Below the pieces are notes generated by a model. It saw nothing but the letters and a program-made list of their open reading frames with translations, had not been told where the DNA came from and made no database searches. 43,003 nucleotides of DNA, from the IMG/VR virus record IMGVR_UViG_3300045988_008747; one strand, given 5' to 3'. Positions within the stretch are counted from its first letter, which is position 1. Every line of letters starts with the position of its first letter. Shown one piece after another: positions 1-43,003 of this stretch. The position numbers were made by a program, and so were the translations under genes. Source of the stretch: a virus.

Positions 1-135
1 CGTGCTGCAATCGCCGCTGGACCCCGCCGTGCTGCAATTGCCGCTGGACCCCGCCGTGCTGCAATTGCCGCTGGACCCCGCCGTGCTGCAATTGCCGCTG
101 GACCCCGCCGTGCTGGAATAGCCGCTGGAAAAAGG
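1..135. repeat. Tandem 27-bp coding repeat (5 units), same array as 42697..43003
   Basis: Units cgtgctgcaat[c/t]gccgctggaccccgc at 1, 28, 55 and 82, plus a degenerate unit at 109. Confidence 0.95.
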
Positions 136-468
136 TTCTTTGCCCTTCACCCGATTAAAAACGGCATTCACTGTAGCTTTTACCAGCCCTGCAAAATTCA
201 CCTCGCCTTTCACCGTAAGCTCAGTGCAGGCCAGTTTACTGTCCTCTACGCTTTTATCCACGTTCCCGCCGCACTCGACCTCAAAAAAGCGCGGGCCATC
301 CTTCAACGGGTAGTAGTGCAGCACATCCAGCGGGTTCTCGCAAGCGTGCATACCAGCGTGGCAGCAGTCGGCCTCAGGCTCTGTGTAGGTCTTGCCCACC
401 TCATACTGCTTGCCACGGCACATCATGTTTTTGTCCATGGCCTTGTATGCAATGATCTTTTCACTCAT
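1..468 (-). CDS. N-terminal part of a repeat protein (conserved head I recall as DUF7666-like, then SSG[DN][CY]STAG nonapeptide array); the ORF leaves the window at nt 1 and is completed by 42487..43003
   Basis: ATG at 468-466 (rc) with AGGAGG 9 nt upstream. 156 sense codons stay open to nt 1: MSEKIIAYKAMDKNMMCRGKQYEVGKTYTEPEADCCHAGMHACENPLDVLHYYPLKDGPRFFEVECGG...SSGYSSTAGSSGNCSTAG. It is missing from the ORF track only because no stop lies in-window. Confidence 0.8.
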   Translation of the reverse strand, partial: MSEKIIAYKAMDKNMMCRGKQYEVGKTYTEPEADCCHAGMHACENPLDVLHYYPLKDGPRFFEVECGGNVDKSVEDSKLACTELTVKGEVNFAGLVKATVNAVFNRVKGKEPFSSGYSSTAGSSGNCSTAGSSGNCSTAGSSGNCSTAGSSGDCST

Positions 469-488
469 GGGTGGTGTCCTCCTTTCTA

Positions 489-731
489 TCAATGTCGCAG
501 CACAACATTGGACGAATGAACCAGATATGTCACGCCGTCAATCTTCACTTGCAGCTGGTCGCCCTCGTAATCGTCCCAACTGTTCAATTTCCCCTCGACA
601 ATCGTTCCGTCTGGCATTTTCAGCTGTGCCCAGCTGTATTCATAGGTCAGGTCAATAACCTGCTTATTGCATCCGGCCATCAGCAAAGCGCTTGCCAATA
701 CGGACGCTACGCCAACAATAATTTTTTTCAT
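489..731 (-). CDS. Small secreted lipoprotein (80 aa)
   Basis: MKKIIVGVASVLASALLMAGC has a signal peptide and an LMAGC lipobox. AAAGGAG RBS upstream of the ATG. Confidence 0.8.
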   Translation of the reverse strand: MKKIIVGVASVLASALLMAGCNKQVIDLTYEYSWAQLKMPDGTIVEGKLNSWDDYEGDQLQVKIDGVTYLVHSSNVVLRH

Positions 732-776
732 GCTCGTTTCTCCTTTTAATAAAATGTTTAATAAAATGTCTTCTCT

Positions 777-1265
777 TTGCTGTGCCGTCGCAGTTCTCTG
801 CGTTTCCTAGCTTCACTCTTCTCTGCCTTTGCTAAACATCGCTTCTCAAAGCCATTGCGCTACTTGACTAAGCTGGTCCTTGCCAAGCCGTTCCATCGCA
901 AATCACGGCATTTCTTCTCTCTTCCATGCCAATGCATCCGAAGCAAAACCTTGCCGCAGCGAATCGTTACGGTGCACCACTTTTCCTTCGCAAATCACAT
1001 CAGCGCTTTTCTCTGCCATTCCTTCGCGTCGCATTGCTCTGCTAGCTATGCCTCCGCCTTGCCCGTCTGTGCTTCTCAGTGCCACTGCACAGCAGTTCAC
1101 CTCATAGCCTTTGCTGTTCCGTGCCATGCTCATCATCGCCATCGCTAGGCCAGTCCACGCGCATCAATGCCCTTGCGGCTCGTAACCACTCCCAGCCTTG
1201 CCATTGCCACGCCTCGAGCTGCACCGCCTCCGCGAATCAGGGCCGTCAATGCCATGCCGTTGCTC
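777..1265 (-). pseudogene. Decayed coding region or gene remnant with no convincing intact ORF
   Basis: The minus strand is purine-rich like neighbouring genes but is broken into short frames (36 aa, 79 aa at 903..1142, and others). A degenerate direct repeat ttcc[a/t]tcgcaaatcac occurs at 891-906 and 983-998 and encodes related peptides (..AVICDG.. / ..DVICEG..) in different frames. Confidence 0.3.
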
Positions 1266-1898
1266 TCAGTCCTTCACCTCATAGGCAATGTAAGTAAACC
1301 GGCCTTTTCCGCTGTTGCGCCACTGGCCGATGCCGCGCAGAATGCCATAATCCAGCCACTCACGCACGGCCTTTTCGTGGCTGTCGTCAAGGAGGGTCAC
1401 GTCAAACTCGCAGCTGCTACCCGCCGGGATTTCCTCACTGTTGGCAAGGCTCACGCGCTCTCCCTGTGCGGTCTGGGCACGCAGCGGACGCTGGCAGTCG
1501 GTAATCTTACCGTTCACGTGAATGGGAATCATGCGGGGCTGAACGAAGATCAGGCCGTCAATGGCCTTCTTGTAAGCGGTCAGCTTGCCGCTTTCGTTCA
1601 CGGCCTTCTTCTTGCCAGCCTCGGTTTTGCCGCCGATACGGCCCAGCATACCGCAGGAGTCCTTGAAGAACCCCTTGATCTGGTAATCGTAAAAGATCGG
1701 ATTGCCGTCCGGGTCACGCGGGAAAACGGTCATGCCCTTGTCAGCTACCGCATCAGGGCCAAGAGCCGCCACTTCATCCTCGATGGTTGCAGCATCCGGC
1801 GACTTGCTGGCGATGAACTCCCGGGCAACATTGGGGTTTGCGGGCCAGGTGCCAAGCACCGGCTCAATAAACGTAGCTTTCACATGCAGTTTTTTCAT
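1266..1898 (-). CDS. Early protein of unknown function with RAMP (Csm3/Cmr4, Cas7-like) motif pattern, 210 aa
   Basis: GGAGG lies 8 nt before the ATG at 1898. Motifs: PIFYDYQIKGFFKDSCGML, EEIPAGSSCEFDVTLLD and a C-terminal glycine-rich loop LRGIGQWRNSGKGRFTY. Confidence 0.85.
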   Translation of the reverse strand: MKKLHVKATFIEPVLGTWPANPNVAREFIASKSPDAATIEDEVAALGPDAVADKGMTVFPRDPDGNPIFYDYQIKGFFKDSCGMLGRIGGKTEAGKKKAVNESGKLTAYKKAIDGLIFVQPRMIPIHVNGKITDCQRPLRAQTAQGERVSLANSEEIPAGSSCEFDVTLLDDSHEKAVREWLDYGILRGIGQWRNSGKGRFTYIAYEVKD

Positions 1899-3832: not shown

Positions 3833-3853
3833 AAGGTCACGGAGGTGAGCTCC

Positions 3854-4234
3854 ATGACAATCGGCGAACGAGTCAAGGAACTGCGGAAGCAGGTTAACTT
3901 GACGCAGCAAGCCTTTGCAGACAGACTGAACCTCAAAAGAAATACAGTTGGCAGCTACGAAGTAAACGTAGTGGAGCCCAGCGACCGAACGATCTCTGAC
4001 ATCTGCCGCGAGTTTAACGTCAACGAGACGTGGCTGCGGACCGGTGAAGGAGAGATGTTCAACCAGATAACCCAGTCGGAGAAGCTGGCTGCTTTTCTCG
4101 CTGACATTACGGCGAACGAAGAAGACAGCTTCAAACGGCAGTTTGTGGAAGTTCTGGCCGAGCTGGAGCCCGAAGACTGGAAATTTCTTGAGCGGATGGC
4201 GAGAAAGCTGCAAAAAAAAGAGGGAAACCCGTAA
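3854..4234 (+). CDS. XRE-family HTH repressor (CI-like, no peptidase domain)
   Basis: MTIGERVKELRKQVNLTQQAFADRLNLKRNTVGSYE is a classic HTH_3 motif. GGAGG lies 8 nt before the ATG at 3854. Divergent from the early operon. Confidence 0.9.
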   Translation: MTIGERVKELRKQVNLTQQAFADRLNLKRNTVGSYEVNVVEPSDRTISDICREFNVNETWLRTGEGEMFNQITQSEKLAAFLADITANEEDSFKRQFVEVLAELEPEDWKFLERMARKLQKKEGNP

Positions 4235-27005: not shown

Positions 27006-27082
27006 TGGTGCCGCCTGTGGGGCTTGAACCCACGGCCCCCGGATTACAAATCCGGCGCTCTGGCCGACTGAGCTAAAGCGGC
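27006..27082 (-). tRNA. tRNA-Thr (anticodon UGU), CCA encoded
   Basis: GCCGCTT-TA-GCTC-AGTCGGCCA-GAGC-G-CCGGA-TTTGTAA-TCCGG-GGGCC-GTGGG-TTCAAGC-CCCAC-AGGCGGC-A-CCA. All four arms pair canonically. Confidence 0.9.
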
Positions 27083-34312: not shown

Positions 34313-34448
34313 TGCCGCCAGCTGGGTTTGAACCAGCACCCATGGAATGGATGCGCGCAGTGGTTGGCTGTGCAGTGATGTTCCCGTGGTGTCACCAACG
34401 TTGTCCCGCCTTAAATGGGCGGCGCTCTTCCAATTGAGCTATGACGGC
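34313..34448 (-). tRNA. Noncanonical tRNA-Lys(UUU)-like element with A33 and a 68-nt insertion at the variable-loop position
   Basis: GCCGTCA/TGGCGGC acceptor, TAGCTCAATTGGAAGAGC D arm, CCGCC-CATTTAA-GGCGG anticodon arm, a 68-nt insert, then the GCTGG-TTCAAAC-CCAGC T arm. Confidence 0.4.
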
Positions 34449-34570
34449 ATATAAGCAGCGCCCGTGCATTCAGTGTGTTGGACATGCGTCAAACGGTGGG
34501 CGCTGCTGCATCCGGAACTTTCGCGGCCGGATGCCCCGCTATTGCGCCGCCCCCTCATAGGGCACGCAAG
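34449..34570 (-). ncRNA. Structured spacer between tRNA-Trp and the Lys-like element
   Basis: Perfect 8-bp stem GCATCCGG/CCGGATGC (11-nt loop) and perfect 10-bp stem AGCAGCGCCC/GGGCGCTGCT enclosing a GTTTGAC-GCAT-GTCCAAC hairpin. Confidence 0.3.
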
Positions 34571-34643
34571 CACTCCCGGCAGGGCTCGAACCTGCAACAT
34601 GCGGTTTTGGAGACCGCCGCTCTACCGCTTGAGCTACCGGAGT
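34571..34643 (-). tRNA. tRNA-Trp (anticodon CCA), CCA not encoded
   Basis: ACTCCGG-TA-GCTC-AAGCGGTA-GAGC-G-GCGGT-CTCCAAA-ACCGC-ATGTT-GCAGG-TTCGAGC-CCTGC-CGGGAGT-G. One G.G mismatch in the acceptor stem. Confidence 0.85.
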
Positions 34644-37577: not shown

Positions 37578-38143
37578 CCTTCAATCTCCTTCCTTGGCGG
37601 CTCACTCGCCCGCAGCCTTGCAGCTTCACGCGGGGCAGTAGTGATATCGGCCTGCGCCTGCTTCAAAAATTCGGCACGGCGGTATGTAAGGTCTGGCATT
37701 TCAGCCAGCGCTGCAAGCCCTCCAACGCTCCCGGCATAGGATTTTGCCGCCGGGGGGAGTTTGTCATACAGGGCTTTCAGCTCTTTCTGCCCGTCACTAC
37801 GCAGAAGCCCGCCCTTTTCGTCAATGCCGGTCACCATCGGGAACTTACGCCAGCTCAAAAATGTCTGTGCCTTGCGTGCCGCTACAGCCAGAGCTTCCCA
37901 TTCAGCGGACGGATCAAGACACTGGGAAAGCTGTTTGAAGATGTCGGCCACCGTGACCGGATAAACGCATACTCGGTTCGCCGCCAGAAAAGCCCGCTTG
38001 ACAGTATCGCCGTCATAATCGCCAAACTGGTACGCCCACACGTCAATGGTGGTTTCCATCTCCTCGTCGGTCAGAGGCTTTGCCCCAAGCTTATACAGCG
38101 TGAAATTCATTCGGATCAGCTTTGCCACGTCCTCCCGTGTCAT
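37574..38143 (-). CDS. Replication accessory protein, G39P-like helicase-loader candidate
   Basis: ...EEMETTIDVWAYQFGDYDGDTVKRAFLAANRVCVYPVTVADI... Directly downstream of the DnaD-type organizer. Confidence 0.55.
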   Translation of the reverse strand: MTREDVAKLIRMNFTLYKLGAKPLTDEEMETTIDVWAYQFGDYDGDTVKRAFLAANRVCVYPVTVADIFKQLSQCLDPSAEWEALAVAARKAQTFLSWRKFPMVTGIDEKGGLLRSDGQKELKALYDKLPPAAKSYAGSVGGLAALAEMPDLTYRRAEFLKQAQADITTAPREAARLRASEPPRKEIEG

Positions 38144-38925
38144 GTTTCAAACCCTCTTTCTCGATCCATTTTTGCCAGCACCCGGGCAAGCTGGTCGTCT
38201 ACGGTCTCGGTTGGCTGCTTGACTCGCGGTCTGGCTTGTCGGCTTTGTTCGTTGGCTTCCACGTCTCCCGGCGTGCGCAGGCCGTCCCGTTTCCAGCCGG
38301 ACAATATGCCGTTGATGTAGTTCCACGACCGCTTCCCGGCTTCTGTGGCCTTGTCAATCGCCAACAAGATCATCTCTGTGCTGTACTCCTGCCTCCACTT
38401 CTGCAGCTTGTCCAGTGCAGAGCGCGGGAAGTCCCCAACGGCCTGCTGATAATGCTGGACGATCTTGGAAAGTTCTACGTCAACGGCGGCTTTGGCGGAG
38501 CTATTATATATATCCCCGTTAGGGGATATAACAGTACCAGTAACAGTTCCAGTACCAGTAACAGTTCCAGTACCAGTAACAGTTCCAGTACCAGTAACAG
38601 TATCATTATAGTTACCACTTGCTTGCACTTGGTAGCATGTGCTAGCATTTGCTGAACTTGCTTTCATTTGAGCAGCACGGGCTTTTCCGGCTTCACGGCG
38701 CTTTTGCTTGACGTTCTCGTACTTTTCTGCAGCCGAATCCACGCCATTGCACATGAACCGGAAATTTCCACGCATTCCACGGTCGGAAAATGTTGGTTTT
38801 TCGCCTGTTCGGACGTACTTTGCCAAAGCCCGCATTAGCTGTCCTACTTCGGCATCCGTGTACTCTTCCAGCGCGTCGAACCAATCCAGATACGCAACAA
38901 ACGACTTTTTTTCTTCTTTTGCCAC
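38140..38925 (-). CDS. Replisome organizer with a DnaD-type C-terminal domain and an internal (TGTGTV)n repeat
   Basis: GTG start after AAGGAGGTG. ...EMILLAIDKATEAGKRSWNYINGILSGWKRDGLRT. Confidence 0.8.
   Translation of the reverse strand: MAKEEKKSFVAYLDWFDALEEYTDAEVGQLMRALAKYVRTGEKPTFSDRGMRGNFRFMCNGVDSAAEKYENVKQKRREAGKARAAQMKASSANASTCYQVQASGNYNDTVTGTGTVTGTGTVTGTGTVTGTVISPNGDIYNSSAKAAVDVELSKIVQHYQQAVGDFPRSALDKLQKWRQEYSTEMILLAIDKATEAGKRSWNYINGILSGWKRDGLRTPGDVEANEQSRQARPRVKQPTETVDDQLARVLAKMDRERGFET
38531..38601. repeat. 18-bp tandem repeat (acagttccagtaccagta, about 4 copies); replication-origin iteron candidate
   Basis: Direct reading. Flanked by the AT-rich tract attatatatatc at 38503-38514. 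Confidence 0.85.
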
Positions 38926-42372: not shown

Positions 42373-42490
42373 TGCCGCATCCCTCCTTTTTTTCTCTCAG
42401 CTTCCGCTTCATCTGGATATGCTCCAACTGTTCCGGCTGCCTTGCATCCCAGCGCTGTTCAAGCCAGCGCTTGCTGTAATGCTTCCTCAT
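42323..42490 (-). CDS. Small basic ORF (55 aa), below the track cutoff
   Basis: ATGA overlap with the stop of the repeat gene. MRKHYSKRWLEQRWDARQPEQLEHIQMKRKLREKKEG... The 3' end overlaps the next gene. Confidence 0.3.
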   Translation of the reverse strand: MRKHYSKRWLEQRWDARQPEQLEHIQMKRKLREKKEGCGSDEAEHGNCRVLPDHA

Positions 42491-43003
42491 GGCTCGGCCT
42501 CCACAAACTCCCCGTTTTTGAGGGTATAGTAGACTTTTTCTCTGATGGCAGAGCCATCCACGCGGGCCATTTTGGCGCAGATCATGTGGCCGTCATCGTC
42601 GTACTCAGTCAGCACCAGATAGCAGCCCAGTGCGCCACACGCCTTACCGAAAGCACCGTTTACAACGGCAATGCTATCTTTTCCGTCTACTTTTGCGCTG
42701 CAATAATCCCCAGTGGCTGCCGCCGTGCTGTAATCGCCGCTGGACCCCGCCGTGCTGTAATTGCCGCTGGACCCCGCCGTGCTGTAATCGCCGCTGGACA
42801 CCGCCATGCTGTAATCGCCGCTGGACCCCGCCGTGCTGCAATCGCCGCTGGACCCCGCCGTGCTGCAATTGCCACTGGACCCCGCCGTGCTGTAATCGCC
42901 GCTGGACCCCGCCGTGCTGCAATCGCCGCTGGACCCCGCCGTGCTGCAATTGCCGCTGGACCCCGCCGTGCTGCAATTGCCGCTGGACCCCGCCGTGCTG
43001 CAA
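42487..43003 (-). CDS. C-terminal part of the repeat protein begun at 468..1 (nonapeptide array plus C-terminal globular domain)
   Basis: The frame is open from nt 43003: ...CSTAGSSGNCSTAGSSGDCSTAGSSGDYSTAG...SSGDYSTAAATGDYCSAKVDGKDSIAVVNGAFGKACGALGCYLVLTEYDDDGHMICAKMARVDGSAIREKVYYTLKNGEFVEAEP*. The track's ATG at 42807 is internal. Confidence 0.8.
   Translation of the reverse strand, partial: CSTAGSSGNCSTAGSSGNCSTAGSSGDCSTAGSSGDYSTAGSSGNCSTAGSSGDCSTAGSSGDYSMAVSSGDYSTAGSSGNYSTAGSSGDYSTAAATGDYCSAKVDGKDSIAVVNGAFGKACGALGCYLVLTEYDDDGHMICAKMARVDGSAIREKVYYTLKNGEFVEAEP
42697..43003. repeat. Tandem 27-bp coding repeat (about 11.4 units), continuous with 1..135
   Basis: Period of 27 confirmed by gctgga at 42901 and 42928. 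Units are identical apart from a few positions. Confidence 0.95.

Follow-up and report, generated by a model that had tools for sequence, protein, structure and literature searches.

VIPR (Viral Interference Programmable Repeat), a minimal form of RNA-guided DNA recognition that has been proposed to predate CRISPR, was presented in two preprints of April-June 2026 (bioRxiv 10.64898/2026.04.26.720920 and 10.64898/2026.04.26.720927), which give the following account. Vipr is an ancestral RAMP protein with a single RRM, found mainly in phages and prophages and flanked by long intergenic regions. The associated RNAs, called vrRNAs, are made of tandem YNNGG pentamers, with NNNGG, YNNNG and NNNNG as variants, and both staggered and ribozyme-interspersed arrays are described. 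The protein forms a right-handed helical filament with one protomer per repeat and six subunits per turn. Within it, the thumb and a loop rich in glycine (the G-loop) sequester GGY, W178 and R179 holding G2 and Y3 and H17 and D177 reading G1 (10.64898/2026.04.26.720927), while the NN bases serve to read double-stranded DNA through a triplex R-loop, one base being skipped. In nature, the system is directed at satellites and at the lysis-lysogeny regulators of prophages, and competing phages are silenced. Seven types are distinguished, most with an accessory vap gene; type II is exemplified by Escherichia phage SUSP1 and a P. fulva prophage, with PDB entry 36pp as a structure. Here, we analysed a viral DNA of 43,003 nt (IMG/VR record IMGVR_UViG_3300045988_008747; the window hereafter means this whole stretch) and, within it, a gene on the minus strand at positions 1266-1898, which an earlier reading of the letters alone (the original prediction) had taken for a solitary Cas7-like RAMP, of a kind of which no description was known to it. 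We propose, with a probability of about 0.78, that the locus is a VIPR system, composed of a Vipr-type RAMP and an adjacent array that supplies its vrRNA; the two preprints thus provide the description that had been thought missing.

Firstly, we examined the protein. The vipr-like gene starts with an ATG at position 1898, ends with a TGA stop codon at 1268-1266 and has a GGAGG ribosome-binding site 8 nt upstream; its product is 210 aa long. The AlphaFold model of this product (predicted local distance difference test, pLDDT, 92.9; predicted template modelling score, pTM, 0.88) has a single-RRM RAMP architecture: beta1, a three-helix bundle (residues 22-52), helix-1, a long thumb hairpin (133-157) and a G-rich loop (189-200) that carries QWRN. 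Along the modelled chain, helices at 71-85 and 172-188 precede the thumb hairpin and the G-loop, respectively, and a beta strand at 201-207 follows. When the model was compared with the PDB by Foldseek, 212 matches were obtained at E<=1e-3, and the top 50 were Cas7-family backbone subunits only. The best structural matches were type VII Cas7, Csm3, Cas7-11, Cmr4 and Csf2 (E of 1e-10 to 1e-6, TM-score of ~0.5-0.6), at 9-16% sequence identity (about 12%). A profile of the family, searched against PDB sequences, matched type VII Cas7 (E=1.4e-5), Csm4 (E=1e-3) and, weakly, Cmr4, and all of these matches span the C-terminal strand, the helix and the glycine-rich loop. A viral protein in BFVD that is 69% identical bears the automatic name 'Cas system-associated RAMP superfamily protein'. 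Judged by its modelled fold, the 210-aa protein is a RAMP of the Cas7-like kind, and the profile matches and the Foldseek top 50 support the original prediction of a small backbone-type protein with a G-rich loop.

Curated profiles do not recognise it. No match to the 210-aa protein was obtained in Pfam, PHROGs, NCBIfam or PADLOC (Pfam, NCBIfam and PADLOC at E<=10), the match to Pfam RAMP profiles that had been anticipated was found neither for this protein nor for any of 74 family members (RAMP/Cas7 models, E<=1), and Pfam and PHROGs returned nothing consistent for these 74. No Cas protein was matched when the PDB was searched with the single sequence. A residue-level alignment to Csm3 (15 columns, E=0.08) was not used. 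The 74 representatives, which are 41-59% identical to the window protein, were aligned: G76, K79, R137, S154, G189 and G199 are invariant, and E155, G160, Q192, W193, R194, N195 and F201 are conserved in at least 90% of the sequences. The three motif strings from which the RAMP assignment had originally been made (PIFYDYQIKGFFKDSCGML, EEIPAGSSCEFDVTLLD and LDYGILRGIGQWRNSGKGRFTY) are present in the protein and fall on the most conserved columns of this alignment. Clustered at 90% identity, the family falls into at least 8000 groups, and at 50% identity into 1704; nearly all of its members lack a name and originate in gut metagenomes or on phage contigs.

Secondly, we analysed the DNA next to the gene. 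The statement that no CRISPR array and no other cas gene accompany it was correct, since no CRISPR array or CRISPR-like repeats were found in the window and Cas models matched none of the 65 predicted window proteins, but the gene is not solitary: a vrRNA-like array of ~490 nt (about 771-1258, minus strand) adjoins it directly downstream, starting 8 nt past the stop codon. The array is non-coding, purine-rich and unstructured, and about 676-1325 is the only region of the 43-kb window in which the periodic score exceeds 0.06. By segmentation, it is composed of ~94 pentamer units of the form r-G-Y-N-N, which corresponds to the YNNNG variant, where at least 4 units would be expected of a VIPR array; they are arranged in ~14 blocks of about six units. 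At the head of each block stands a 6-nt unit (GYNNNG, then GY), and 31 nt contain five 5-nt units and one 6-nt unit, with one G per 5.15 nt. Tandem Repeats Finder (TRF) detected no tandem array in it, and Rfam, hammerhead ribozymes included, gave no match. A 40-nt direct repeat lies inside the array (891-930 and 983-1022; 78% identity); its two copies are 92 nt apart, which is near three 31-nt blocks, and it may be a trace of block-wise duplication.

Thirdly, we surveyed the neighbourhoods of 78 related prophage loci, mostly from metagenome-assembled genomes (MAGs) of Faecalibacterium, Oscillospiraceae, Ruminococcaceae and Lachnospiraceae. Most have a gene-free gap of 200-1000 nt beside the vipr-like gene. 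On the sense strand these gaps are purine-rich (A 0.31, C 0.20, G 0.34, T 0.16), and they lack a 3-nt periodicity and show a strong one of about 5 nt, with a spectral peak at 5.15 nt (full width at half maximum 5.11-5.19; single arrays 5.06-5.20). For G, the autocorrelation reaches 0.28 at lag 62 and 0.15 at lag 124; random 5/6 spacing would give 0.03 and 0.004, and a regular 5,5,5,5,5,6 model 0.25 at both lags. The phase of the lattice is coherent to ~200 nt. The 6-nt units read G-Y-A-A-N-G and then G-Y, and recur every five to seven units with a mode of six. An array adjoins the vipr-like gene in 71 of 74 related loci. Among the 84 array segments, 58 are directly downstream and 17 directly upstream of the gene, some loci having both, and the G-rich strand is the sense strand of the gene in all 84; the arrays are continuous over 160-1060 nt. 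Comparison of related arrays (60 high-scoring segment pairs) yielded substitution rates of 0.066 for the G and 0.084 for the Y, against 0.19-0.21 for the other three positions. Apart from these anchors the arrays drift fast, BLAST similarity being present in only 33 of 3570 array pairs; for this reason, and because TRF found no array, simple tandem duplication was rejected as their origin.

The association extends to distant homologues. Downstream of the homologue in Hydrogenobaculum phage 1 (26% identical) lie 740 nt in which C makes up 8% and G 37%; this region peaks at 5.22 nt, at a height that none of 300 shuffles attained. The very divergent member P0317 is flanked by an array on either side. 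In a divergent lineage, the arrays of locus L081 (2280-2960 and 3885-4560) are T-rich instead of A-rich, keep the G lattice, and each end in a clear intrinsic terminator; as judged from their sequence, the arrays of Clostridia phages are read through, unlike these. We also ran the test in reverse, by searching IMG/VR for 15 phased G's without any protein information. Among the 80 loci returned, 51 contained a coherent array; the vipr-like gene lay within 1.5 kb in 33 of these 51, and on the same strand in 33 out of 33. The linkage between gene and array is tight and ancient.

The connection to VIPR came from arrays of the same lattice that lack a recognisable vipr-like gene. Such coherent arrays are flanked by a second, mutually homologous family, which we call A4, with proteins of ~200-250 aa that end in a RAMP-like G-loop, AGRLIGIGDFRP..G.YGRF; this family came to light solely through the G-lattice that its arrays have in common with those described above. 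Its members lie on higher-GC viral contigs (L113:748-1455, L151:9243-9995, L153:4188-4790, L120:865-1575 and L141:5620-6300). The A4 profile matches PDB 36pp, 'SUSP1 Vipr protein', with E=1.4e-27, and A4 in turn aligns with the family of the window protein over 133 columns (hhalign E=1.6e-4, probability 51%). Nothing turned up in the literature under solitary, orphan or viral Cas7 or under 5-nt periodicity, and the A4 match to 36pp was the sole route to the identification. In the G-loop alignment, W178 and R179 of SUSP1 Vipr correspond to the invariant W193 and R194. SUSP1 D177 is replaced by the invariant Q192, and SUSP1 H17 by T/S17 in the window-protein family; replacement of these two G1-reading residues fits the loss of the first conserved G in the repeat. 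Further lattice-positive loci, among them a giant-virus MAG (L117) and one with an array of ~3.7 kb (L150), have no recognised partner gene (the others being L084, L085, L094 and L116).

By homology with the SUSP1 system, we infer the formation of a ribonucleoprotein, processing to units of ~31 nt, the targeting of DNA and the nature of the biological target. The ~490-nt array would be co-transcribed with the vipr-like gene from an early promoter to yield a vrRNA, along which protomers would polymerise head-to-tail, each pentamer carrying one of them and each helical turn about six. A protomer would lock the conserved G and the next pyrimidine by means of its thumb and of W193 and R194 in the G-loop, and display the variable bases, which would then read the double-stranded DNA of a competing phage or prophage by gapped base pairing, so that its transcription would be blocked. 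The original suggestion that the protein may 'bind RNA for another purpose' came closer to the truth than its anti-CRISPR proposal, since the RAMP of VIPR polymerises on its own vrRNA. We further put forward, tentatively and as rather less probable than not, that the clade uses a code of its own, with one anchored G, three programmable bases and 31-nt blocks that would each form one helical turn of the filament. Were this so, its pairing rule and RNA processing would differ from those of the published type II systems, with their GGY/NN repeat, 1-nt skip and tail-capped RNAs.

Several results weigh against the assignment to VIPR. The direct match between the window-protein family and SUSP1 Vipr is weak (hhalign E=6.4e-4, probability 28%, 42 columns over the G-loop); what sequence similarity there is to SUSP1 Vipr covers no more than the C-terminal third and is no stronger than that to Cas7 or Csm4, 36pp is absent from the search of PDB sequences with the family profile at E<=10, and the thumb residue R138 of SUSP1 has no aligned counterpart in the family. 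The predicted fold of the array transcript shows no excess structure over shuffled sequence (z = -0.7) and no 3' tail was detected in it. No conserved protein partner or vap gene was found next to the vipr-like gene by clustering of neighbours at 77-78 loci. One family member (P0304, in L080, a 254-kb contig) has no adjacent periodic array, its flanking gaps measuring 124-164 nt; this Vipr-like gene is an orphan, or else its array lies elsewhere. Intrinsic terminators as the 3' ends of arrays, a candidate suggested by L081, were rejected as a general feature (4 of 83, against a background of 7.6%). Lastly, we searched for natural targets by comparing the window array and all 192 arrays with 1.8 Mb of phage and prophage DNA, allowing skips of 0-3 nt and demanding exact matches over 6, 8, 10 or 12 units, or at least 18 of 20 bases over 10 units, with shuffled unit orders as control. 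Native and shuffled counts were equal under all skip rules in this search, which had low power because the database was small, the vrRNA boundaries were not defined and matching was exact or near-exact.

Part of this evidence bears on whether a Vipr-type filament forms on the array RNA and acts by a route other than the published silencing, be it another pairing rule, autoregulation in cis or timing of the early operon, or shielding of untranslated RNA. Such a filament would account for the three hypervariable positions per pentamer instead of two, for the replaced G1-reading residues, for an array that lies inside a polycistronic early operon without terminators of its own and may be 5' or 3' of the gene, and for the lack of targets under the published rule. 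However, fast drift between strictly kept anchors would be expected of a programmable guide and not of a cis-regulatory site, a length of up to 1 kb would be costly if the array served autoregulation alone, and the limited power of the target search tempers the argument drawn from it. We therefore regard action by another route as unlikely, and retain the published VIPR activity as the better explanation.

The original prediction suggested a Cas7 mimic that enters or caps the effector filaments of host type III, I or IV systems and so acts as an anti-CRISPR. The RAMP fold, close to Csm3 and type VII Cas7, agrees with this, as does the place of the gene in an early operon beside Ant, a typical anti-defence position, and viral Cas homologues that assemble into a defective Cascade offer a precedent (10.1101/2023.06.24.545427). 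The orphan viral cas genes which Katz et al. describe as anti-CRISPRs (10.1101/2023.06.24.545427) likewise lack an array or cas operon and occupy early or anti-defence positions, but they are close homologues of host Cas proteins (tblastn E<=1e-4) that enter host complexes, whereas the window family has diverged deeply and possesses a putative RNA partner of its own. Identity to any Cas7 is only ~12%, and the family is ancient, not a host gene of recent capture; none of the 74 members matches a Cas model of Pfam, PADLOC or NCBIfam; its own conserved array is linked in cis with a period of 5.15 nt and not the 6 nt of Cas7; and the same module is present in phages of unrelated phyla. With a co-oriented array conserved across phyla and a VIPR architecture, poisoning or capping of host filaments is not supported, and we hold it to be very improbable. 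Least probable of all is that the periodic element acts as double-stranded DNA, with a G:C pair per half helical turn (10.3 bp / 2) forming a lattice for a DNA-coating protein at a centromere, silencer or origin: the 5.15-5.17-nt period equals half the B-DNA repeat and is phase-coherent over 200 bp, and some members, such as P0295 and P0135, carry C-terminal additions of a DNA-binding type, but the G strand is on the gene's sense strand in every array whether 5' or 3' of the gene, the strand-specific depletion of C and U (8% C in a thermophile) points to a single-stranded molecule, it is as RNA that the solved homologue binds the repeat, with a six-subunit turn that explains the 31-nt block, and replication probably starts at another place, the iterons of 38520-38621.

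The family also contains proteins of unusual architecture. Two metagenomic members, P0140 (458 aa) and P0212 (432 aa), are natural head-to-tail fusions of two complete Vipr-like domains. In the doublet model (pTM 0.81), both domains align with gRAMP/Cas7-11 and with the fused Cas7 of type III-D over 500-590 columns (E ~1e-13), and the query-normalised TM-score (TMq) is 0.35-0.42 against these fusions and 0.25-0.29 against single subunits. The doublets would accordingly pack like consecutive Cas7 domains, which is consistent with head-to-tail polymerisation, and they are a possible parallel to the evolution of Cas7-11. Other full-length Vipr-like proteins have C-terminal additions, namely a Big_2 Ig-like domain (P0127), a helix-hairpin-helix (HhH) domain resembling the C-terminal domain of the RNA polymerase alpha subunit (alpha-CTD; P0295) and a lysine/arginine-rich tail (P0135). 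Seeming fusions with four other partners (PLD nuclease, DEDD exonuclease, Pif1 helicase and amidohydrolase) were rejected, because in each a RAMP segment that is truncated at its N-terminus is joined to a truncated partner, at differing junctions and on short contigs; these four types are probably chimeras or decayed prophages.

The window is the genome of a temperate siphophage, with genes for a repressor, Ant, RecT, SSB, a DnaD-like protein and TerL. The position assigned to the vipr-like gene, in the early operon beside the antirepressor, was right: the Ant gene (1924-2763) lies directly upstream. A predicted early lytic promoter, TTGACA-17-TATACT (3770-3742, minus strand; 11 of 12 matches in a promoter scan), diverges from a CI-like repressor gene (3845-4234, plus strand), and is followed by four small open reading frames, Ant and the vipr-like gene. 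No convincing terminator was found between this promoter and position 489, and the predicted promoter most likely transcribes the operon including the vipr-like gene and the array. Both ends of the window (1-492 and 42487-43003, minus strand) lie inside one 27-nt tandem repeat of at least 15 copies, which encodes the nonapeptide repeat SSGNCSTAG; the N-terminal part of this protein starts at ~467, and its C-terminal part matches a PHROGs family of unknown function, phrog_27197. Since both ends fall within the same repeat, the genome would be circular or permuted with the assembly broken inside the repeat, and the early operon would thus continue into DUF1351, RecT, SSB, the DnaD-like organiser, RusA, a late activator and TerL. 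Five 18-nt iterons (CAGTACCAGTAACAGTTC) at 38520-38621, inside the gene of the DnaD-like replisome organiser (38140-38925), are probably the replication origin of the phage. On the minus strand, ARAGORN identified a tRNA-Thr(TGT) at 27006-27082 and a tRNA-Trp(CCA) at 34570-34643; a third tRNA-like match of 136 nt (34313-34448, minus strand), seen by Rfam and not called by ARAGORN, may be an interrupted or degenerate tRNA.

If the assignment is right, a large VIPR clade resides in the prophages of dominant human-gut Clostridia (Faecalibacterium, Oscillospiraceae) and is absent from Pfam, PHROGs, NCBIfam and PADLOC. The traits that set this clade apart are the single-G anchor with matched residue changes, the three variable bases, the 31-nt blocks and the fused doublets. 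With its single anchor G and the replaced G1-reading residues, the clade is an experiment of nature on the reading of the code, and three programmable bases may be on offer for each protomer. Should the variable bases prove decodable, the arrays, with ~100 units per phage, would map conflicts of phage against phage in the gut.

Compared with the Cas7 backbone subunits (type VII Cas7, Csm3, Cmr4, Csf2 and Cas7-11), the window protein has the same RRM palm, thumb hairpin and C-terminal glycine-rich loop at a similar size of ~200 aa. In contrast to them, it has no CRISPR array, no Cas5, Cas6, Cas10 or Cas11 partners and no match to a curated Cas or RAMP profile, and the period of the RNA is 6 nt for Cas7 whereas that of the array is 5.15 nt, with a bound base that is sequence-specific. 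TRAP, which binds the trp leader RNA as a closed 11-mer ring and acts by attenuation, recognises one short motif per subunit, separated by spacers of 2-3 nt, on an unstructured RNA. The system proposed here is alike in that one motif would be read per subunit, and unlike in that its fold is unrelated and that TRAP forms a closed ring and serves attenuation, not DNA targeting.

The likeness to VIPR is closer. Both have a phage or prophage protein of ~20 kDa with a single RRM, a thumb, a G-loop and a helical bundle, in the absence of a CRISPR array and cas genes. Both have long flanking tandem pentamers with conserved G and Y anchors and hypervariable positions, upstream and/or downstream of the gene. 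The Trp-Arg pair of the G-loop is kept, and the six units of a block agree in number with the six subunits per helical repeat of the binary filament. They differ in that the type II repeat of SUSP1 is GGY-NN, whereas the repeat here is r-G-Y-N-N, with one conserved G and three variable positions. The described type II vrRNAs are discrete, ~100 nt long, with 9-16 repeats and a pseudoknotted 3' tail, whereas the arrays here run on without such units and have an extra G every sixth unit; in the window clade, the vap gene and the 3' tail of type II have no detected equivalent. The 31-nt blocks may correspond to the 'staggered arrays' of the VIPR paper. The kind of system proposed is one already described, as VIPR, and the window clade is best explained as a variant of it, uncurated and very abundant in gut phages.

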